A stretch of 64,000 nt of DNA from a virus: the IMG/VR virus record IMGVR_UViG_3300005096_000103, positions 74,360 to 138,359 of that record; one strand, 5' to 3'. Of this stretch, positions 5,876 to 50,470 are shown piece by piece. Below the pieces are notes generated by a model, which had not been told where the DNA came from, ran no database searches, and was given only the letters and a program-made list of their open reading frames with translations. Position 1 is the stretch's first letter; the number at the start of each line of letters is the position of its first letter. The translations under genes were made by a program, and so were the position numbers.

Positions 5876-6982
5876 ATGCTTACAGACGATCTCGTAGAAA
5901 AAATGGCTAAGCTAGGTAAACAACGTTCTACACCTGTACCCTCTGGCTACCCTGTCAATCTATCGTTCGAGCTGAAGATGGCTCGTATCGCTAACCTGTT
6001 GAAGATGCCCTCTATCCCTAAGATCCCTAACGTCGTAGGATCTTCTACTAAGGGTCTCGGGGACTCGGTATCTGCTTCAGCAAAGTCATTCTCTGCAAGT
6101 TCATTATCTCCAAAGTCGTTATCACCTAAGACTAACTTTAAGCCTATTGCAGCTCCTAAGCCTAAGCTACCTGCTACAGCGTCTAGCATAGCACCGGCAA
6201 AGAAACTGCAAGGTGGTAGTGCAGACTGGACCGCATCGGTAAAGTCAGCAAAAGTTACAGAAGTAGATGTCTTTAAGCTCACTAGGAAGCAAAAGGATAT
6301 ACAGCTGTGGAAGGACTGGAAGCACAGTGGACATAAGCCTGGAGCATTAAAGCCGCTGATGTCTGCGCTAGCCCCTGTTATTTTTAGCCAGACTAAGATG
6401 TGGAAAGGTCAAGTTCCAGACTACGCCCTAGATCGTACAGCTCAAAGCCTGGCGCTCAAAGCATTGTATAGTTACGACCCTAATAAAGGCGCGGCGCTCA
6501 ATACACACGTAACAAATGGTCTGCGTAAGATAAGCAGGACCGTCTACCAGAACCAAGATATTATAAGACTACCTGAAGATAAAAAGCTTGAGAGTCAAGC
6601 CATCTTCAAATCAACTCAGGCTCTAGAGGACGAGCTAGGACGGACGCCTTCCGATATGGAACTAGCCGATGATCTAGGGTGGAATGTCAATAAAGTCCGA
6701 AAGTCACAGGGACTCGGGGTTAACGAGTTGGTATCTAGTCTCGATGCAGGTGGTTTGTCTTTAGGGGATAATGGCGACTCTGATCGTAAACTGCGTGATA
6801 CGATACATTACGTATACGCGGGATTACCTCCTACTGACCAAGTCATCTTTGAGCATTCAACTGGGTTTAGCGGAAAGCCTCGCAAGACAGCACTGCAGAT
6901 ATCTAAGATGGTTAAGATGTCACCTGGGCAAGTTCACCAGCGTAAGAAATCAATAGCTGATATGCTAAAGAAGGTGATGTAA
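5876..6982 (+). CDS. RNA polymerase sigma factor, sigma-70 family, with ~125-aa low-complexity N-terminal extension
   Basis: Region 2 (LKALYSYDPNKGAALNTHV), region 3 (ELGRTPSDMELADDLG) and region 4 HTH (LPPTDQVIF...TALQISKMVKMSPGQVHQ). Confidence 0.85.
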   Translation: MLTDDLVEKMAKLGKQRSTPVPSGYPVNLSFELKMARIANLLKMPSIPKIPNVVGSSTKGLGDSVSASAKSFSASSLSPKSLSPKTNFKPIAAPKPKLPATASSIAPAKKLQGGSADWTASVKSAKVTEVDVFKLTRKQKDIQLWKDWKHSGHKPGALKPLMSALAPVIFSQTKMWKGQVPDYALDRTAQSLALKALYSYDPNKGAALNTHVTNGLRKISRTVYQNQDIIRLPEDKKLESQAIFKSTQALEDELGRTPSDMELADDLGWNVNKVRKSQGLGVNELVSSLDAGGLSLGDNGDSDRKLRDTIHYVYAGLPPTDQVIFEHSTGFSGKPRKTALQISKMVKMSPGQVHQRKKSIADMLKKVM

Positions 6983-7768
6983 GTGCAACGTACAGTGTTT
7001 AAAGGTCCACCTGAGAAGAGGGTTAGGGTTAAAAACCTAGGGATCTTAACAAAGACGGATCCTAGAGCTGTACTACTAGACGCTAAGCTGCGCGGTGGTG
7101 GTAGACAGTGGCTCCACTGGAGAGCTGCGACTAAGTTAGCCCAGTTGCTACAAGCCGCGTGGTCTGTAACCCCTGATCTAAGGGCAGTGTCCTGTCTAAG
7201 AGACCCAAAGAAAGATACTAAGGAAGAGTGGATAGCTAAGATCAAAGCCTTTGACATTACGCCATCAGCCAGAGCGCCTAACGGTCCTAGAAAATACTGG
7301 AAGGTGACAGATCAAACAGAAGATCAATCTAGGAAACGGTTATTCAGATTCAGAGCGTATAACAGTGGTCACGAAACCGGGCTATCTGTTGACTTTGCGT
7401 CTAGGTCAGAGGGTCTAGGGACCAACAGTAAACGTATCCACTTTTATAGGGGTACACAGGTTTACGCGTGGCTAGCTTCCAACGCTATTAACTACGGGTT
7501 CACACCTTATAATAACGAACCGTGGCATTGGGAGTTATTCCTAACTCGCAAAGAATGGTTAGAGCTGCCTGACGGCGGATTCGTGATGCCAGACGCTTAT
7601 GCGGCTAGAGCTACAGGCTTTAGTAGCGTCACACGTTATGACGCCTATCAAAGTGCAAAAGACCCTCTAGCTGCAGACGTTCCTCTCGATAAAAAAATAG
7701 TTTACAAGATAGACCACGTACGTAGTATCGGAAAACTCTTTGACTTTGACTTAAACGTCTGGAGATAG
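6983..7768 (+). CDS. M15-family (VanY-like) Zn peptidoglycan peptidase
   Basis: SGHETGLSVD (SxHxxGxxxD) and EPWHWE (ExxH) zinc-ligand motifs. Confidence 0.8.
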   Translation: MQRTVFKGPPEKRVRVKNLGILTKTDPRAVLLDAKLRGGGRQWLHWRAATKLAQLLQAAWSVTPDLRAVSCLRDPKKDTKEEWIAKIKAFDITPSARAPNGPRKYWKVTDQTEDQSRKRLFRFRAYNSGHETGLSVDFASRSEGLGTNSKRIHFYRGTQVYAWLASNAINYGFTPYNNEPWHWELFLTRKEWLELPDGGFVMPDAYAARATGFSSVTRYDAYQSAKDPLAADVPLDKKIVYKIDHVRSIGKLFDFDLNVWR

Positions 7769-18873: not shown

Positions 18874-19224
18874 CTAAACAGTCAATGTCGAAACTCTCTG
18901 GAGCCTCTTAGAGTCCCTATCCTCTGCTTCAAGCTCAATGACTCTCTTTTTATACCTAGCAATCTTATACTTAGTCGTATGTACACTTTCGTCAACATGT
19001 GCAATAACCGACTCTTCTGCGCGGCCTATGTACTCTTGGATGATCTCGGGCTTAGCCCCTGTATACTGTGTACAAAGCATCAAAACTTTCATGTAAAATT
19101 GTAGCTCTTCTGCATCCCGATCCCTCTCCCGTAGATACATCTCTTTGAAGAGGATGCTCTGATATGTATACCTCTCTGGTAGCGGGAGTCCATGCCACAC
19201 CCTATGTGCTCGGGCTCTGTTCAT
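18874..19224 (-). CDS. Tail assembly chaperone, gpT-like frameshift extension
   Basis: Lies in the -1 frame of the upstream ORF and is reached via the A AAT TTT slippery site without an intervening stop. Confidence 0.65.
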   Translation of the reverse strand: MNRARAHRVWHGLPLPERYTYQSILFKEMYLRERDRDAEELQFYMKVLMLCTQYTGAKPEIIQEYIGRAEESVIAHVDESVHTTKYKIARYKKRVIELEAEDRDSKRLQRVSTLTV

Positions 19225-19232
19225 AGGGCTTT

Positions 19233-20225
19233 CTAAAAATTTGACATGAAGTCCTTTGAAAACACTGCTGCCACTAGTTGATCGAGTTCCCTAAGCTTAT
19301 CAAGTAATAGAGTGTATACGGCCTCTTGCAGGTTACACGCCCATTCAATCCTAGCTTCAACAGTCCAGTCATCCATACGAGTGTCCCCGTACCTACATAT
19401 TGACGCAGCTAAGTTCTGTCGCCAAGTTAAATATGATAACGTGATCCCTGACATCGCCGATTCTTCTGCGGACTGTTCAAGCTTCTCATTGATGCTTGCG
19501 ATGTCTCCACCGTCGCGAGTCTTTAACTCAACAGAGAAGTTTCCTAGGATCTGATAGACGCGTCTATAAGGCTTATTCTGGAGCATCATAGTATCAATGA
19601 TCTCCCAAGCCTCTTCCTTTGTTACACCTGCTAACTCTAGCTTTGCTTCAAATATCTCCTTCTTACTCTTCTCTACCTTGATCTGTTCTCCAATGATACT
19701 CTGTGGAGTGATGGAAACTTCTTCTTCGAGCTCTTTGGTGTCTAACGAATCTACCTTTTCTAGGACAGAGTCTGGCATCGCTGCGGAGAGTTCACCACCT
19801 TTAGGTGCGTCCTTAGACACGAGAGTTCTAGTCATCTGCCCTTCCTCGTCTTCCTCATATTTCTCTACTTTAATATTCCCTCCACGAACAGCTTTCCAGC
19901 GGTCTCTTACTTCTTTAGCTATACGTTCGTGAAACTCTTTACCTACTAACTCTTCGTCTGTAGACGTTTCTAGGTTAGACGTTTCTAAGTTAGACATAAC
20001 CATCTCACCCTCTACAACGACCGGAACAACTACTGAGCCCTCTTCTATAGCTTTAGACATTGCTTCGCCATCAGGGTCATAGTACCCTTCCTCTATCTTA
20101 TTCATAAAGTCTTTAGAGCTTTCATAGATATCATCGCCATTATAATGGGCGTTGAGCGTAACAGAAGCTAGAGCTTTAATCTTGAGATCGTCTCTATACT
20201 CGCTGCGTTCTTTGTCTGTTAGCAT
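19233..20225 (-). CDS. Tail assembly chaperone, gpG-like
   Basis: Acidic 330-aa protein ending ...TCA AAT TTT TAG (X XXY YYZ heptamer directly before the stop). Confidence 0.65.
   Translation of the reverse strand: MLTDKERSEYRDDLKIKALASVTLNAHYNGDDIYESSKDFMNKIEEGYYDPDGEAMSKAIEEGSVVVPVVVEGEMVMSNLETSNLETSTDEELVGKEFHERIAKEVRDRWKAVRGGNIKVEKYEEDEEGQMTRTLVSKDAPKGGELSAAMPDSVLEKVDSLDTKELEEEVSITPQSIIGEQIKVEKSKKEIFEAKLELAGVTKEEAWEIIDTMMLQNKPYRRVYQILGNFSVELKTRDGGDIASINEKLEQSAEESAMSGITLSYLTWRQNLAASICRYGDTRMDDWTVEARIEWACNLQEAVYTLLLDKLRELDQLVAAVFSKDFMSNF
19236..19242 (-). promoter_or_regulatory. -1 ribosomal frameshift slippery heptamer AAATTTT
   Basis: 0-frame TCA AAT TTT TAG; -1 frame reads TTA GAA AGC CCT ATG AAC AGA into ORF 18874-19224. 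Confidence 0.7.
19961..19995 (-). repeat. 15-bp in-frame tandem duplication (SNLET x2)
   Basis: tagacgtttctaggt / tagacgtttctaagt. Confidence 0.85.
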
Positions 20226-20305: not shown

Positions 20306-20334
20306 AGACTATAACTCGGATAAGGAAATGTCAA
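20306..20334 (-). promoter_or_regulatory. Sigma-70-like promoter TTGACA-N17-TAGTCT for chaperone genes
   Basis: Minus strand TTGACA tttccttatccgagtta TAGTCT; -10 lies ~80 nt upstream of ATG 20225. Confidence 0.6.
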
Positions 20335-43363: not shown

Positions 43364-43990
43364 ATGAAAATCTCGGTAGAAACCTTATACAAGCTCAACA
43401 TTCAAAATGGTCTTATTTACGTCGACTTATTCAAGGATCACTTCCCTGAGGGGTGGGATGGTGAATGGACGGCAATGTGTCAAGCTGTTTTCCTAATGAA
43501 TCCTGATCTCGCAACTACCTGGAGCCGGCTTTGCAATCTTGGACTCCTACCCCGTTATAGTATGGCGGGTTGGAACCTCCAAAACGTTAACCTCAGCCAC
43601 GTTGACCTACGCGGCGCAAATCTAAAAGGGGCAGACCTTCGTGAAGCTAATTTCAGCTACGCAAATCTCGACTACGTTGACCTGAGTGGTGCTGACCTGC
43701 GAGGCGCTAGATTCATCGGAGCCACTCTACGTAGGACTAACCTCCATAGCGCTAACCTCAGTGTTAACCCTGCAGGTGTAGGAGCTGACATGACCGGAGC
43801 AGATCTTAGCCATACAGACCTCGCGTGGGCAGATCTACGAGGAACACGATTCCGTGGCGCTAACCTGAGCTACGCTGACCTAAATAATGCAGATCTAAGA
43901 GGTGCTAACCTCACAGCTGCCAACCTTACATGCGCTAACCTTAATGATGCGCTCCTTGCTTCAAGCAGAGGAATAGATGGAAACTTTTAA
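43364..43990 (+). CDS. Pentapeptide-repeat protein
   Basis: Many A(D/N)L(R/S/T)x repeats over the C-terminal ~130 aa. Confidence 0.92.
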   Translation: MKISVETLYKLNIQNGLIYVDLFKDHFPEGWDGEWTAMCQAVFLMNPDLATTWSRLCNLGLLPRYSMAGWNLQNVNLSHVDLRGANLKGADLREANFSYANLDYVDLSGADLRGARFIGATLRRTNLHSANLSVNPAGVGADMTGADLSHTDLAWADLRGTRFRGANLSYADLNNADLRGANLTAANLTCANLNDALLASSRGIDGNF

Positions 43991-44198
43991 AATTCTTAAG
44001 AGTCTTAAGAGTCTTAAGACTCTAGTCACCCCCCTCTTTAGCGCGATGAGTGGGCTCCTAATCTGGTATGTTATAGGCGGCATAGGTATTGTAGGTATGG
44101 GTAGCGGCGTAGGGTGTGGACCAGGGTCATTCATGCTGGGCGCTGCTATTGCCGGAGTCGTTGTCACGTCAATATGGAAAAGTCGTAAGGAGTCCTAA
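43977..44198 (+). CDS. Small Gly-rich membrane protein
   Basis: Two hydrophobic segments; GAGGA RBS; 9-bp LKS repeat. Confidence 0.6.
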   Translation: METFKILKSLKSLKTLVTPLFSAMSGLLIWYVIGGIGIVGMGSGVGCGPGSFMLGAAIAGVVVTSIWKSRKES

Positions 44199-44199
44199 C

Positions 44200-44520
44200 A
44201 TGGAAAAGATATGCACAGCATGCGGGTCAATCGGAAGGTCTAAGACACTAACAAAAGGTAGCTTCATTCTAGAGCTAATTCTGTGGGCTATGATGATACT
44301 GCCGGGTATGTGCTACACCGTATGGCGTCTTACAACGAGAGGTCCGGTATGCTCTAAGTGTCTCAGCCCTAATTTAGTACCTCTATCGAGTCCGATGGGT
44401 CGGAAACTTCAAGCTGACTTTCTAGAAATGGAGTCTGCGGTGAAGAAGGTAGAAGATACGATCGCAGAAGATAAAGAAGCCCTTGAAGATGGGATGAATA
44501 AGCTAGGAACTAAAGAGTAG
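44200..44520 (+). CDS. Zn-ribbon/TM/Zn-ribbon small protein
   Basis: CTACG...TM...CSKC; AAGGAG RBS supports ATG 44200. Confidence 0.65.
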   Translation: MEKICTACGSIGRSKTLTKGSFILELILWAMMILPGMCYTVWRLTTRGPVCSKCLSPNLVPLSSPMGRKLQADFLEMESAVKKVEDTIAEDKEALEDGMNKLGTKE

Positions 44521-44976: not shown

Positions 44977-45012
44977 AGGGCTAGAGAGGTGGTTTAGAGG
45001 GCTAGAGAGGTG
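44965..45012 (+). repeat. 21-bp tandem duplication spanning a stop codon
   Basis: gaggtggtttagagggctaga x2 plus partial. Confidence 0.9.
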
Positions 45013-45013
45013 C

Positions 45014-45274
45014 TCAACTCACCGCCTTAGCGTAAGATACCATCCTCCTTAAAAAAGATCCTGTATTTCTTGCGGCTCTAACACCTCTTGCGCCTACAAT
45101 ACCAAGGCTAGTCAAGCCAACTAGACCTCCCCCGCCTATTATGAGCTTCTGAGTTGTAGACACACCATTTCTGCCCTTAGAGTCTTGATGGCTCATTGCA
45201 ACTTTTAGGCTGGAGGTTTCAGCGTTGTAAGCGTTTTGATAGGCTAGCTTGACTAAGCTTTGTAGGTTGTACAT
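45014..45274 (-). CDS. Leader-family protein 1 (KLAY..AYN leader + Gly-rich cationic core)
   Basis: MYNLQSLVKLAYQNAYNAETSSLKVA. Confidence 0.8.
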   Translation of the reverse strand: MYNLQSLVKLAYQNAYNAETSSLKVAMSHQDSKGRNGVSTTQKLIIGGGGLVGLTSLGIVGARGVRAARNTGSFLRRMVSYAKAVS

Positions 45275-45283
45275 GATGGTCTC

Positions 45284-45565
45284 CTAGACTGCCTTCTTAA
45301 TAACTTTAGCAGCTGCTGCTGCTGCTGCACCCATAGCAGACTTAGACTTGAGTAACTTTTTTGCGGATCGTCGTGCTGCTAATGTTGCAATCCCAATACC
45401 GGCTGTAGTCCCTACGACTCCTTGGCCAATGGTTTTAAAGAGGCTATCTGATTTAGTTACGAGTCCGTCGATTCCGCGGTGCTTAAGTGCAATCTTTACA
45501 CTGTCAACGTAGTCGTCGTAGGCGTTTTGATAGGCTAGCTTGACTAAGCTCTGGAGGTTGTACAT
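45284..45565 (-). CDS. Leader-family protein 2
   Basis: MYNLQSLVKLAYQNAYDDYVDSVKIA. Confidence 0.8.
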   Translation of the reverse strand: MYNLQSLVKLAYQNAYDDYVDSVKIALKHRGIDGLVTKSDSLFKTIGQGVVGTTAGIGIATLAARRSAKKLLKSKSAMGAAAAAAAKVIKKAV

Positions 45566-45592
45566 CTTTTTTTTTAGCTCCCAAGAATGTTG

Positions 45593-46186
45593 TTATAGTA
45601 CTTTGGCTACGTTCTTAGCAACACTTGCTAGAACCTTCTCAGCTTTTAGAGCTGCTGTACCCTTAGCTGCAATGTTAACCGTTTTGTTTACTGTACTAGG
45701 GACTGCTTTTGCTGCGGCGTTAGCTGCTACGTTAAGTGTCTTAGCTTCGCTCCTAATACCCGCTTTGGCTGCTGCGGCGCTAGTAGCTCGCTGCTTACTT
45801 ACTGTCTTGTATAAGTCCTTACCTAAATCTCTCACAGTGTCCACGCCGTAGCCTAAGCCCTCACGCGCCATAGTTGGTATAGCTGAGAGACCTTTAGCCT
45901 TCCCTAGTCGTGAGTATCTCTTAGCTAAATTCGTCTTTGCAGATGTACCACCTAGAAACTTCTGAGCTATTGCACCAGTTCCTACTAATCCAGTTCCTGC
46001 AACTAGGCCTCCCCCTCCTGCAGCTAGTCCTGCTGCTGCAATTCCAGCACCTGAACTTCCTTTACGGCGAGGTACAGGCAAATGTGCTGCGATTTTATTT
46101 AGCTGGGAGGCTAGCGCACCATATTCCTCGTTATACGCAATTGTGTATACACTAGCTAGGCATTTCTTATGTGTGTCTGTGTACAT
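45593..46186 (-). CDS. Leader-family protein 3 (divergent leader)
   Basis: LASVYTIAYNEEYGALASQLNKIA then glycine zipper and Ala/Lys-rich tail. Confidence 0.75.
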   Translation of the reverse strand: MYTDTHKKCLASVYTIAYNEEYGALASQLNKIAAHLPVPRRKGSSGAGIAAAGLAAGGGGLVAGTGLVGTGAIAQKFLGGTSAKTNLAKRYSRLGKAKGLSAIPTMAREGLGYGVDTVRDLGKDLYKTVSKQRATSAAAAKAGIRSEAKTLNVAANAAAKAVPSTVNKTVNIAAKGTAALKAEKVLASVAKNVAKVL

Positions 46187-46210
46187 CTATCTTCCCTAAG
46201 TAAGTCGCCA

Positions 46211-46630
46211 TTACATCTGAGCTAAAGCAGCGCGGAGATTACGTCCCCTCTCAAAAGATATATCCCCCTGGAGCTCTGAGACTGTATCTCTAACCACAGA
46301 CTTATTAGCGCCTCTAGCAGCGCGTAATCCTGCACCAGCCCAGTCGTCTACGACGTTGAACGCTTTGCGCATCCCACGACCTACCCCGTAAGTCAGACCT
46401 ATTGTCGCTGCTGTTCCTGCCGCCGCGATTCCTAAGCCTTTTGCGACGCCACCCATAGTAACAGGTCCAGTCTGTGTGGGTATTGGTGGTCGCATGGGTG
46501 GCATCAGCGCCTGTGCCTGGCTGTGCATAGCGACTTTAGGGCTCGACGGGCTAGCTAGTCGAATCCGTCGGACCTCTTCAGCGTATGAACGTTGATACGC
46601 CAGTTTTACTATGTAATCTAGGTCATTCAT
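46211..46630 (-). CDS. Leader-family protein 4
   Basis: MNDLDYIVKLAYQRSYAEE...SPKVA. Confidence 0.8.
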   Translation of the reverse strand: MNDLDYIVKLAYQRSYAEEVRRIRLASPSSPKVAMHSQAQALMPPMRPPIPTQTGPVTMGGVAKGLGIAAAGTAATIGLTYGVGRGMRKAFNVVDDWAGAGLRAARGANKSVVRDTVSELQGDISFERGRNLRAALAQM

Positions 46631-46649
46631 TCATATACCCATAGGTACG

Positions 46650-47051
46650 CTAAGTTACAGCCTTAACTACAGTCTTAGCAGTATCAGCAGCAGCAGCTAG
46701 AGCTTTGCGTTTCTTTAGTGCGTTCATGATAGTATAACCTGTAGACGCTAAGAGTCCGCCACTTAAACCATCTACAATGCGGTTATCAAGAGTACCTTTA
46801 CGTCTACTCACGTACTCTGTTACCTTTTCACCAGGGAGCATCTTAGCACGTATATGCCTGGCTTGCTTCCCTCTATCACCAATCATATGCTTTAAGTTGT
46901 AGATTTCCTTCGCCGTCAGCTTAGACGACACGCGTTTAAGCGACTCGCGAATCGTAGCGTCTCGTTTACGCGGATCAGCGTTCTTAATCGCTGCCATCTC
47001 TTTGTTGTACGCTTCGGAGTAGGCGAGCTTTACTAGGTGCTGTAAATTCAT
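46650..47051 (-). CDS. Leader-family protein 5
   Basis: MNLQHLVKLAYSEAYNKEMAAIKNA. Confidence 0.8.
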   Translation of the reverse strand: MNLQHLVKLAYSEAYNKEMAAIKNADPRKRDATIRESLKRVSSKLTAKEIYNLKHMIGDRGKQARHIRAKMLPGEKVTEYVSRRKGTLDNRIVDGLSGGLLASTGYTIMNALKKRKALAAAADTAKTVVKAVT

Positions 47052-47092
47052 CTTTTAACCCTTTATAGCCTTGAAACTAAATTCACACCCTT

Positions 47093-47121
47093 ACGAAGTA
47101 GGTTCTAGTGGCCTACTTCGT
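47093..47121. other. Intergenic hairpin within the leader-family cluster
   Basis: acgaagtaggtt-ctagt-ggcctacttcgt; no T-run, possibly an mRNA stability/processing element. Confidence 0.45.
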
Positions 47122-47179
47122 TTAGACGTTGAGGAGACTCTATTAATCTATATACCCGTCTGACGCCGGGACCAGTCGT

Positions 47180-47542
47180 CTATGCGTTCCTTAAGAGGGG
47201 TACACCTATAGCTGCAAATTCGTCCAGTCGACGCTGCGTCCGTGAAGGCGCTGACGCTGCGTCGACTACTTCCCCCGCGACATCCCCTACAGCGTCGACT
47301 GCAGCTCCACCAGCTTGACGGAGCCCTCTGCCTTTAAGGTAGCGACCTCCTAAGTATAGCGCACCTGCGCCCATAGCTAGACCGCCTAGACCTGCACCAA
47401 CCTGCGCTCCTAACCCAACTTTAGCTGGAGTGCTTAGGCCTTTGTCTTGTCCTTCCTGACTGAAGAATCCTGCAAGTTTAGCAGACTCTTCGTTATAGGC
47501 TTGCTGGTATGCTAGCTTCATGTGGTATTGCAGGTTGTTCAT
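47180..47542 (-). CDS. Leader-family protein 6
   Basis: MNNLQYHMKLAYQQAYNEESAKLA then glycine zipper. Confidence 0.8.
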   Translation of the reverse strand: MNNLQYHMKLAYQQAYNEESAKLAGFFSQEGQDKGLSTPAKVGLGAQVGAGLGGLAMGAGALYLGGRYLKGRGLRQAGGAAVDAVGDVAGEVVDAASAPSRTQRRLDEFAAIGVPLLRNA

Positions 47543-47603
47543 CCAATTCCTCAGTTCTAAACCACTCTAAGATCAGACTCTATAGACTCTAGATCCACCT
47601 CAA

Positions 47604-47632
47604 AGACTAACAGCCTCACAACCCTTCGTCAA
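47604..47632 (-). promoter_or_regulatory. Sigma-70-like promoter TTGACG-N17-TAGTCT for the leader-family cluster
   Basis: Minus strand TTGACG aagggttgtgaggctgt TAGTCT, with TGn extension. Confidence 0.6.
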
Positions 47633-47743: not shown

Positions 47744-48973
47744 ATGGGACTTAGGGAAACTGCTAGAAACAATACTATCGCAGGTGGAATTGCGGGTGCG
47801 GGGTTTGGCGGCCTTGGTGGTGGACTCAAAGCTTTCCGACGTGGAGGGGGTCTCGCTGGAGCGGGCCTCGGTGTCTTAGGTGGAGGTCTACTAGGTGGTA
47901 TCGGAGGTGGTATCGGAGGTGGCATCACTGCAGGTGTCTCACACGCAGTAGGTAACGGCAACCTCGGATATGCACAACAGGCTGGTGGTGACGCAATTCT
48001 TGGAGGCATCCTCTCTGCGCCCCTTGGCGCAAAGGGTGCACTACTAGGAAGTGCACTAGGTGGTGGGCAAGGTGCTGCTAGGGAGTATATTAGGCAGAAG
48101 ATCTCGGCTAGTCAGGGGCTTGGAGAGGCTATTGGTGAGAACGCTATTGCAGGAGGTCTTGTAGGCGCTGGAATTGGAGGTCTCGCTGGTGGGGCTCGGG
48201 CCATACGGGCTGGTGGTGGATTAGCTGGTGTAGGTCTAGGCGCCTTAACCGGCGTTTTAGGTGGTGGGATTGCAGGTGGAATCGGTGGAGGCATAGTCGG
48301 TGGAGGGCTGAACGCTGTTGGGAAAGAGGAGGGTTATAGAGGTCAAGTTGCAGGTGGTGCACTACTCGGTGGACTCTTAGCAGCGCCTTTTGGCCCGCAA
48401 GCTGCACTAGCAGGTGGCGCACTAGGTGGTGGGCAAGGCGCTGCTAGGGAGTACGTCAGGCAGAAGATCTCGGCTAGTCAGGGGCTTGGAGAGGCTGTAG
48501 TGGAGAACGCTGTTGCAGGCGGTGTGGGCAATGGTGTAGTCGGAGGTTTAACAGGCGGAGCACTTGGCGCACTAGGTGGTGGTCTTGGGGGTTACTTCGT
48601 GGGCAGAGAGGAGAAAAAAGTAGGCCCTGTGCTAGGGGCCCTATTAGGCGCAGGTCTCGGCGCGGGAGCCGGCGCACTAGGCGGGACGGCGTTAGCTTCA
48701 GGTCTAGGTGCACTTGAAGGCGCTGGTGCTGGTGCAATGATGCACGCTGCAGGTGTAAAGCCTAACTACAAAAACCAGATGCTTGCGAGTGCAGGTATCG
48801 GTGGTCTTTTAGGCTTGTCGGGTGGAGCTTTAGCACCCATTACCGTTCCAGTATCTGCGGCTACAGGTTCTCTAAATGGGATACCTCGCGAGTATGCACG
48901 TCGAGTACTCTACAAAGAGTCGTCTTATAGATCTGAGGGTCTTAGTGCTGCAGAGATGTGTGGATTCCGCTAG
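47744..48973 (+). CDS. Triple-repeat glycine-zipper protein
   Basis: Three GxxxG-rich units, each ending in REY..(QKIS/QKIS/YKES); 78-bp near-identical DNA at 48053-48130 and 48419-48496. Confidence 0.8.
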   Translation: MGLRETARNNTIAGGIAGAGFGGLGGGLKAFRRGGGLAGAGLGVLGGGLLGGIGGGIGGGITAGVSHAVGNGNLGYAQQAGGDAILGGILSAPLGAKGALLGSALGGGQGAAREYIRQKISASQGLGEAIGENAIAGGLVGAGIGGLAGGARAIRAGGGLAGVGLGALTGVLGGGIAGGIGGGIVGGGLNAVGKEEGYRGQVAGGALLGGLLAAPFGPQAALAGGALGGGQGAAREYVRQKISASQGLGEAVVENAVAGGVGNGVVGGLTGGALGALGGGLGGYFVGREEKKVGPVLGALLGAGLGAGAGALGGTALASGLGALEGAGAGAMMHAAGVKPNYKNQMLASAGIGGLLGLSGGALAPITVPVSAATGSLNGIPREYARRVLYKESSYRSEGLSAAEMCGFR

Positions 48974-49041: not shown

Positions 49042-49614
49042 ATGATGCTGAATGAATTTCTCGATCTATACAGTGTTAATACGTTGGTAAGGATACCACT
49101 GGCTGAGTATCTCGTACTGAGTGTTAAAGCTGATAGGGCTTTTAACGTTCTAGTCGACGAAACTCGTATCATCTCTAATGGTAGGGACACGTGGTATACT
49201 GCTATGGATGCTCATGCGGCGTTGAAGCGTTGGTTGTCTACACTTAGTGACTCTACAGTTGGTAAAAACTGTAGCACCTTTGCGCCTGCTTCCATTGGTC
49301 CGGGTATCACGAATAGCGACTTAGACAACGCTGAGGCGTTTAGTGGTGATAAGCTGGCTAAAGGTGAAAGGTCGTGGGTTATCCGAGAGTCTCAGACTAA
49401 TCCTACGACGAAGTTCACTATAGGTTCTGTAGACTATAGCTATACCCTAGACAGCGAATCCTGGGACGTCCTGAGCCCCTGGTTCAGCGAGATAGGTCGG
49501 GAGTACACACCCTTGATTGTACTAATCTATAGCGCACTACGACGGACAAAGATTGGTCGAACAGTCCATAGGGACCTTATTAGGAGAGAAAATGAACAAG
49601 TTCGTCTGGGTTGA
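49042..49614 (+). CDS. Hypothetical protein
   Basis: 190-aa ORF. Confidence 0.65.
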   Translation: MMLNEFLDLYSVNTLVRIPLAEYLVLSVKADRAFNVLVDETRIISNGRDTWYTAMDAHAALKRWLSTLSDSTVGKNCSTFAPASIGPGITNSDLDNAEAFSGDKLAKGERSWVIRESQTNPTTKFTIGSVDYSYTLDSESWDVLSPWFSEIGREYTPLIVLIYSALRRTKIGRTVHRDLIRRENEQVRLG

Positions 49615-50470
49615 TGGCCCACGCCCTAAACTAGCATCTGAGATTGCTAGGTATGTAGAACTTCTTGAAACGATTGAAGTCGATGAGTATATCATCCAGC
49701 TCCAGTCCCCTAGAGTTAGGAGACGTTGGAAGGTTGACCGACTCGTCGAGGTGACTAAGCTACTCCAGTCCCACGGGAAATCTGTTAGTTGGCTCGTTTG
49801 GGGCTACGCTGACGACGTGAAGATTGACGATCAGTTTGAGTATCTCATGGAACTCCTCCCCCTAGCTCAACCCCGTAGTATCCAGTGGGACTGTGAGGAG
49901 CAGTGGGACGATAAGAAGCTAAGCGACTCAGATGTTAAAAAGTCTGCAAAGCATCTAGAGGCTGCAATGGGCAACCTACTCGCCCTCTGGCCTGAGCTCG
50001 TCTTCGGCATCTCCGCGATAACCCAGTGGCCTAAGGCGAAGTTCACCAAGAAGGTAGCTTACGCCCTCGCTATCAAGTACGTCACCGAGGGCTACGCACA
50101 AATCTACGCCTTTTACAACAAGCGCATCAATAGTCGTGGAAAACGCCACTGGTCTACAAAGATGCCTGTTGAGCGCCGCCTCGCTGACCCAATCCTAGCC
50201 GCCTGGAAGACGCTGAATAACGTCACAATAAGCGTTGGACTTGCAGCCTACATGCAGACCTGGCCCTCGCCTCGCATCTACCCTGGCTGGAACGGTCCTA
50301 CCCCTAAACCTGTTGAAGCAATGCGGCGTAATTACATTGCGATCCGCGACGCAGTCCTACTTATTAACCCAACGGCACGAATTGGCTGGTGGGCTGCAAA
50401 ACATCTGGTAGACTTAGAGGAGTTTACAGACAAGTCGAGTAGGGCAAAGACGCTTATTAACGCTCTCTGA
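49592..50470 (+). CDS. Putative TIM-barrel glycoside-hydrolase-like protein
   Basis: Alternating beta/alpha pattern with IQWDCEEQW (DxE as in GH18/GH25); AGGAG RBS supports ATG 49592. Confidence 0.45.
   Translation: MNKFVWVDGPRPKLASEIARYVELLETIEVDEYIIQLQSPRVRRRWKVDRLVEVTKLLQSHGKSVSWLVWGYADDVKIDDQFEYLMELLPLAQPRSIQWDCEEQWDDKKLSDSDVKKSAKHLEAAMGNLLALWPELVFGISAITQWPKAKFTKKVAYALAIKYVTEGYAQIYAFYNKRINSRGKRHWSTKMPVERRLADPILAAWKTLNNVTISVGLAAYMQTWPSPRIYPGWNGPTPKPVEAMRRNYIAIRDAVLLINPTARIGWWAAKHLVDLEEFTDKSSRAKTLINAL

Follow-up and report, generated by a model that had tools for sequence, protein, structure and literature searches.

Six small genes, arranged head to tail on the minus strand of the genome of a highly divergent, uncultured phage, encode cationic proteins that share a short N-terminal leader. 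The reading favoured here, given somewhat less than an even chance, is that their products are virion cargo, loaded by a leader akin to the capsid-targeting sequence (CTS) of phage T4 and cut by the head protease. The array occupies positions 45014-47542 of the window, i.e., the right-hand 64 kb of the 138,359-bp IMG/VR phage record IMGVR_UViG_3300005096_000103, which carries direct terminal repeats; coordinates marked 'genome' refer to the full record and those of the array to the window. The recognisable genes of this phage include those for pieces of a multisubunit RNA polymerase, a sigma factor, ribonucleotide reductase, a family A DNA polymerase and helicases.

The cargo reading is preferred because the leader is modular, is found on an unrelated protein of the structural block and is kept by the ortholog of that protein; because it ends in a motif, K-x-A, that marks virion-module proteins of this phage and head-module proteins of Salmonella phage Arash; and because the layout, size, charge and leader behaviour of the array proteins match the precedent of phages T4 and SPN3US. 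As proposed, the leader would dock the array proteins to the assembling particle, probably to the prohead core, after which the head maturation protease would remove it at K-x-A, and the basic mature parts (6-17 kDa) would remain associated with the packaged DNA and pass into the next host along with it. The glycine-rich hydrophobic segments and Lys/Arg-rich tails of these proteins would fit DNA binding and/or membrane insertion.

A leader peptide shared by otherwise dissimilar proteins

The six open reading frames (ORFs), termed k1 to k6 in order of window coordinates, lie exactly where the first-pass annotation had placed them, and their products range from 86 to 197 amino acids (aa). In five of the six, the leader follows the pattern M-x(1-2)-L-x4-K-L-A-Y-x2-[AS]-Y, while that of k3, already singled out as divergent, reads T-I-A-Y-N-E-E-Y after a six-residue insertion and still scores 49 bits against the leader profile, the range for all six array proteins being 49-66 bits. 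Only A11 and Y12 are invariant across all members. The K-x-A motif is present in each array protein, starting at residues 24, 24, 31, 32, 23 and 22 in k1 to k6, respectively; all six motifs quoted in the first-pass annotation thus exist, although they do not stand in strict register. An AlphaFold2 model of k6, built with an alignment of its paralogs, has helices at residues 4-27, 48-64, 78-95 and 103-112 at low confidence (predicted local distance difference test, pLDDT, 46), and the leader is modelled as an amphipathic helix of approximately 26 residues ending near K-x-A. This model was too poor for a fold search, and ESM Atlas gave no usable structural lead: its model of k4 is of low confidence, and the single-pass membrane proteins that are the closest shapes to it are to be taken as a lead only.

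Past the leader, each body consists of a variable linker, one glycine-rich and moderately hydrophobic segment (Kyte-Doolittle 19-residue mean of 1.26-1.82 in five proteins, and a weaker 0.81 in k5) and a Lys/Arg/Ala-rich tail. The net charge of the array proteins is +2 to +20 and the isoelectric point (pI) of the bodies 9.4-12.0. When the bodies without their leaders were compared by BLASTP, no pair scored above shuffled sequences (best 19 bits; shuffled mean 17, maximum 23), and the bodies are therefore alike in composition and layout, without detectable homology. A short N-terminal peptide on otherwise unrelated small basic proteins is what characterises a T4-type CTS, and this is the arrangement found in the array.

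Codon usage indicates that it is the peptide that has been maintained. The leader DNA of k1 and k2 is identical at 45 of 48 positions over the first 16 codons, all three differences being synonymous (36 of 39 over the core 13 codons, and 48 of 54 over the 54-nucleotide (nt) range considered in the first-pass annotation). Similarity drops abruptly to background past the leader, and the upstream DNA is not conserved, a pattern compatible with a duplication that is recent or with gene conversion confined to the leader. In the other leader pairs, identical residues are mostly encoded by different codons, e.g., seven of ten between k1 and k5 and seven of eight between k4 and k6, so that outside k1/k2 the peptide has been retained despite saturation at synonymous sites. 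Since the conserved residues use different codons, the leader is selected as a peptide and is under long-term purifying selection in all members. The near-identity of k1 and k2 leader DNA over dissimilar cores was thus borne out, while the cassette-like shuffling of leaders and cargo that had been read from it is supported by this one gene pair only, the other leaders differing at most synonymous sites.

Regular-expression and hidden Markov model (HMM) scans of all six frames of the genome located the leader in seven proteins only, always N-terminally, these being the six of the array and one other, and an unbiased all-against-all comparison of N-termini within the genome returned the same six genes and the same seventh protein. 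The latter begins M-D-T-A-S-L-I-K-L-A-Y-A-N-A-F-V-D-T-L-N-S-V, matches the leader with a local HMM E-value of 0.0024 and scores 54 bits in a profile of eight sequences. Its body consists of approximately eight G-x-N-P-T-x-M-x-R-A-N repeats and has no hydrophobic segment. The leader thus behaves as a portable module, occurring on seven bodies of two unrelated kinds at two loci. The seventh gene is flanked by genes for a 983-aa sheath-like and a 250-aa tube-like protein, with a VgrG-like spike gene downstream, and its product contains five K-x-A sites, against 1.2 expected, in a context like that of head proteins.

The sole homolog of the seventh protein among 5.8 billion protein clusters is P0007 (58% identity), which starts M-N-T-N-D-L-V-K-L-A-Y-A-H-A-F. 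The N-terminal 36 residues of the two proteins are 75% identical, as against 58% overall; the two differ by whole repeat units. P0007 is encoded on the 16.7-kb metagenome contig VAPH01014434.1, which is collinear with the phage over a region bounded by the major capsid protein (90% identity) and the spike, and ends before the array region, so that it allows no statement on the array in this relative. An AlphaFold2 model of the seventh protein, built with its ortholog, is helical at low confidence (pLDDT 43) and too poor for a fold search. In the more distant, cultured phage Arash, the sheath and tube genes are adjacent, with no seventh gene there, and this gene is therefore regarded as a lineage-specific insertion.

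Beyond these eight proteins the leader was not encountered. A full-alignment word-index search of the 5.8 billion clusters returned only proteins of this genome and P0007, as did a search of longer proteins with a leader profile that included the seventh protein, and so did an exhaustive leader-profile search of 1.84 billion representatives, which requires approximately 34 bits and which diverged leaders such as that of the seventh protein would escape. No such leader was seen in IMG/VR (pattern scan), GenBank phages, Arash or Vibrio phage D69. Leader-like N-termini in the head module (e.g., M-H-N-L... with K-T-A at 23-25) were not significant (E > 0.4). Against Pfam and PHROGs, the six array proteins, their neighbours and the seventh protein gave nothing above threshold, and Pfam, PHROG and large profile searches revealed no homology to T4 internal proteins or to a CTS of the MKTYQEFIAE type. 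The phage has no near relatives in IMG/VR or among GenBank phages as judged by DNA or helicase; P0007 is likewise absent from IMG/VR, species genomes and GenBank phages, its contig having come from metagenome contigs. A search of the genome and of metagenomes with a leader HMM had been called for in the first-pass annotation, which named confinement of the leader to the array as one result that would count against its proposal; instead, the leader was found on a structural-block protein and on the ortholog of that protein in a relative.

The K-x-A signature and the putative head protease

The candidate enzyme for leader removal, which matches the PHROG 'head maturation protease', is 33-36% identical to gp222 of Arash, a protein found in virions (33%), and to a protein of Vibrio phage D69; further matches are to proteins of Gordonia phages, among them one annotated as 'capsid maturation protease'. 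Within residues 5-33, 15 of the 37 ORFs in the minus-strand structural block contain K-x-A, as compared to 8 of the 102 remaining ORFs (Fisher 2e-5), and it is the best of all 400 X-x-Z motifs for structural-block N-termini, the runner-up reaching p = 0.013. The array proteins, without exception, and the seventh protein also contain it. The motif is in excess in proteins encoded beside the protease (12 sites where 2.4 were expected, and 9 where 2.1 were expected) and in the protease itself (9 against 3.2). Sites in the head module share the context [LI]-[VI]-K-[LIV]-A-[SAG], which differs from that of plus-strand sites (leave-one-out p = 1e-6), and five of the six array proteins have a K-x-A site above the 87th percentile of controls for such a head-like context.

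A corresponding signal is present in Arash (OQ632216.1), in whose head module, at 142-152 kb, K-x-A is the most enriched X-x-Z motif (41 sites against 21.8 expected), with 10 sites in gp220 (3 expected) and 8 in gp223 (3.1 expected). Both major capsid proteins of Arash have K-E-A near residue 30, in one of them at 27-29.

Precedents and competing readings

The internal proteins of T4 are small and basic, and their N-terminal propeptides of 10-19 residues bind the prohead core and are removed by gp21; the propeptides of IPII and IPIII are identical on diverged bodies, and a variety of basic proteins with leaders like the CTS is encoded by T-even phages (PMC9026906, PMC3012670). The N-terminal 15 residues, which include the protease motif, are the same in the paralogs gp53 and gp54 of the giant phage SPN3US, and the mature part of its ejection protein gp47 contains a transmembrane segment (PMC5694885). 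The array resembles the set formed by IPI, IPII and IPIII (and Alt) in comprising several small basic proteins, of 6-17 kDa after the leader as compared to approximately 8, 10 and 20 kDa in T4, and in combining a shared short N-terminal peptide with diverged bodies, the leaders of k1 and k2 being alike as are the propeptides of IPII and IPIII. The genes are accessory and lie outside the head cluster, as in T4, and the motif at the end of the leader is the one that marks head proteins in this phage. Unlike these parallels, the sequences themselves show no similarity to the T4 CTS or internal proteins; the leader, at 16-26 residues against 10-19, is longer, the putative motif is K-x-A rather than L/I-x-E, and the bodies carry glycine-rich hydrophobic segments; packaging and cleavage are here predictions. 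The lineage also differs, being Arash-like, with genes for a multisubunit RNA polymerase and its own sigma factor.

The array likewise resembles the head paralogs of SPN3US and phiKZ, in which the N-terminus is kept together with the protease motif while the rest diverges, and these phages also encode virion RNA polymerase subunits beside their head genes (PMC5694885). Unlike in the array, the propeptides of SPN3US are mostly longer than 100 residues and end in A/S/G-x-E, and gp53 and gp54 are homologous over their whole length (Pfam PF12699), whereas the array bodies are not detectably related. As regards the cleavage site, K-[LIV]-A-[SAG] has the form of the sites cut by herpesvirus assemblin, an analogy of site shape only. 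Prohead proteases of the T4 type have the same fold as assemblin, which cleaves (V/L)-x-A|S sites after the Ala.

Several observations weigh against the cargo reading. The register of K-x-A is loose, with R-L-A at the aligned position in k4 and K-V-A eight residues later, and with the motif shifted by one residue in k3 and k6. The residue that follows it in the array leaders is Y, M, L, A, D or G, while head-module sites prefer S, A or G; it is atypical in four of the six proteins, and Y follows none of the 76 head-module sites. K-x-A as the specificity of the protease is itself a statistical inference, and the protease has neither a Pfam Peptidase_S77 match nor a sequence match in the PDB. 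The array is situated approximately 95 kb from the head module in linear coordinates and under a sigma-70-like promoter, and its glycine-rich segments could be plain membrane anchors. Arash and D69 lack the leader, as well as any array that shares a leader of another kind, and the virion proteome of Arash is therefore no proxy for the array. Finally, the seventh leader gene is located between tail sheath and tube genes, at a site where Arash has no such gene. Of the head-packaged, protease-matured family envisaged in the first-pass annotation, the leader module, the K-x-A signature and a putative protease are thus in place, while, given the position of the seventh gene, the compartment may be the head or the tail.

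The main competing explanation, which we regard as rather unlikely, takes the array products to be small membrane proteins at work in the infected cell, in superinfection exclusion, in lysis timing (as holin- or antiholin-like proteins) or in envelope remodelling, with the glycine zipper as anchor and the N-terminal helix as a cytoplasmic domain for oligomerisation or partner binding that is never cleaved and never packaged. In its favour, the array proteins have one hydrophobic glycine-rich segment and then a basic tail, like holins and many other small membrane proteins of phages, and are encoded outside the structural block and among neighbours of glycine-zipper or membrane type (the 409-aa protein at 47744-48973, and ORFs of 73 and 134 aa at 43977-44520), and the closest ESM Atlas shapes are, as weak evidence, single-pass membrane proteins. 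However, only k1 exceeds the classical hydropathy threshold of 1.6, the others lying at 0.8-1.4, and basic residues on both sides of the segment leave no clear topology. The same leader is carried by the 213-aa structural-block protein, which lacks a hydrophobic segment; the only recognised cell-wall hydrolase, VanY (window 6983-7768), is encoded 38 kb from the array, and no holin or exclusion match of Pfam, PHROG or PADLOC type was obtained. Holins are recognised by one or more genuine transmembrane helices, charged residues at the C-terminus and a gene next to that of the endolysin, a combination that the array does not show. A lysis cassette was also considered and rejected, as no hydrolase match was obtained for the neighbouring 305-aa protein (49553-50470) and VanY is encoded at another place.

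Basic proteins that bind or condense DNA, or other soluble accessory proteins, which are not packaged and which share the N-terminus as a common interaction helix, would account for bodies with a pI of 9.4-12 and for Lys/Ala-rich tails like those of histone-H1-like or nucleoid proteins, but would leave unexplained both the K-x-A signature common to virion-module N-termini and the leader on a structural-block protein; this is considered improbable. Slightly less probable still is a role as tail cargo or assembly factors, in which the KLAY helix would dock to the tube lumen, the tape measure or the baseplate and K-x-A would have no part in it. What speaks for it is that the seventh leader gene, upstream of the VgrG-like spike, has the sheath gene (983 aa) on one side and the tube gene (250 aa) on the other, as does the recurrence of the array promoter pattern solely upstream of a pair of genes for proteins of 330 and 116 aa; however, it could not be confirmed what the 330-aa protein is, K-x-A is abundant, and in a head-like context, in the seventh protein itself, and gene position is a weak guide in this clade. 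The first-pass annotation had also named, and set aside, leader/core precursors of bacteriocin-like or ribosomally made, modified secreted peptides. A leader with a variable core, and glycine-rich cationic cores like those of class II bacteriocins, agree with such a role, but the leader is of neither the double-glycine nor any other known type, the bodies are long for such peptides (60-164 aa) and match no family, and the Pfam inventory of the 138-kb genome contains no modifying enzyme, C39 peptidase or ABC exporter. These peptides are recognised by a known leader together with an adjacent modifying enzyme, leader peptidase or exporter, none of which was found, and the verdict of the first-pass annotation is upheld genome-wide: this origin is very improbable.

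The cargo reading may be extended to a more ambitious proposal, which appears somewhat doubtful when taken as a whole, namely that the Arash-like lineage has its own virion-loading tag in the form of the KLAY helix, unrelated in sequence to the T4 CTS, and a new protease code with cleavage after K-x-A, an Ala site like that of assemblin, that at least seven accessory bodies are so tagged, and that six of these, the cationic glycine-zipper proteins, accompany the DNA on infection and become inserted into the host membrane or cross it. The principle is already known; new are the leader as such, the lineage that carries it, the putative K-x-A code and the putative cargo of cationic glycine-zipper type. 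If the leader is a loading tag, the T4 principle of a short cleavable tag that directs arbitrary cargo into the head would reach a distant and barely studied lineage, with a tag and a protease motif different from those of T4. An N-terminal K-x-A rule would then predict which orphan proteins of these phages are virion cargo, the leader would be a short candidate tag for the packaging of foreign proteins, and small cationic glycine-zipper proteins would represent a hitherto undescribed class among injected proteins. Should the leader be no loading tag, the array would be of ordinary interest, as a family of small proteins that bind DNA or reside in membranes and that is specific to this lineage.

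Operon layout and neighbouring sequence

The array forms one operon, of which k6 is the first gene. Intergenic gaps measure 9-27 nt, except for 128 nt between k6 and k5, and a purine-rich ribosome-binding site precedes each of the six ORFs. The long gap, the only one in the operon, contains an RNA hairpin of -18.3 kcal/mol (z = -3.6 against shuffles). The features of the array and the two related genes of the structural block are collected below.

Table. Positions of the array genes, their candidate regulatory elements and the related structural-block genes (window coordinates unless marked 'genome')
Feature	Position (strand)	Length	Description
k1, array gene 1	45014-45274 (-)	86 aa	Leader; K-V-A 24-26; Gly-zipper segment, most hydrophobic of the array (Kyte-Doolittle 1.82); Arg-rich tail; body pI 12
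k2, array gene 2	45284-45565 (-)	93 aa	K-I-A 24-26; leader DNA near-identical to that of k1
k3, array gene 3	45593-46186 (-)	197 aa	Divergent leader (T-I-A-Y); K-I-A 31-33; Gly-rich segment 45-75; long Lys/Ala-rich tail; net charge +20
k4, array gene 4	46211-46630 (-)	139 aa	Leader; R-L-A 24-26; K-V-A 32-34; Pro-rich linker; Gly-rich segment ~61-84
k5, array gene 5	46650-47051 (-)	133 aa	Leader; K-N-A 23-25; weak hydrophobic segment; basic Lys/Ala tail
k6, array gene 6	47180-47542 (-)	120 aa	Leader; K-L-A 22-24; Gly-rich segment ~44-66; least basic body of the array (pI 9.4)
RNA hairpin	47093-47121 (-)		k6/k5 gap; 10-bp stem, 9-nt loop, no U tract
Promoter-like site	47604-47632 (-)		TTGACG-N17-TAGTCT, 62 nt upstream of k6
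Seventh leader-bearing protein	genome 9750-10391 (-)	213 aa	Structural block; KLAY-type leader and repeat body
Putative head maturation protease	genome 23458-25497	679 aa	PHROG phrog_18299, E 7.6e-6

As a 12-base pattern, TTGAC[AG]-N17-TAGTCT occurs just twice in the 138-kb genome, upstream of the array and at window 20306-20334, both times on the minus strand and 62-81 nt upstream of islands of minus-strand genes amid plus-strand genes; the second copy precedes the minus-strand pair encoding the 330-aa and 116-aa proteins (window 18874-20225). A generic promoter scan of the array region was at chance level, a search for enriched 8-mers upstream of genes gave no common motif, and TATAAAG-type motifs were too few for any inference on promoters. 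The octamer GAGTCTAT in the 5' untranslated region of k6 was considered as a promoter and rejected, since the word is over-represented genome-wide, with 28 copies against approximately 4 expected, on both strands and mostly within genes; two copies lie at window ~47575-47590. AGAGTCT is similarly in excess (81 copies against 17 expected genome-wide), and the two could represent a modification, recognition or recombination word. Another sequence, A-rich-N-TGGTATAAG, resembles an extended -10 element and is present in approximately ten copies upstream of plus-strand genes of the replication region, including those at window ~20284, 27955, 33677, 34808, 39837 and 43322 (+); it is probably one promoter class of the phage.

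Just past the stop codon of k1, approximately 2.3 tandem copies of the 21-bp unit cacctctctagccctctaaac are found on the minus strand (window ~44985-45012), in the gap between the array and a convergent plus-strand gene for a 137-aa protein. On the other side, the 409-aa protein is encoded divergently from the array (47744-48973, plus strand) and consists almost entirely of glycine-zipper segments, without the leader; it has at least seven hydrophobic glycine-rich stretches and internal repeats ending in G-Q-G-A-A-R-E-Y-[IV]-R-Q-K, and matches no family. A pentapeptide-repeat protein (43364-43990, plus strand; Pfam E 1.5e-37) is encoded shortly upstream of the small membrane-type ORFs at 43977-44520. 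Further away, the gene of the VanY-type peptidase directly follows that of a sigma factor (Sigma70_r3; 42% identity with gp10 of Arash) at window 5876-7768 (+), and the large genes which flank these two match the Arash virion proteins gp6, gp8 and gp12-14.

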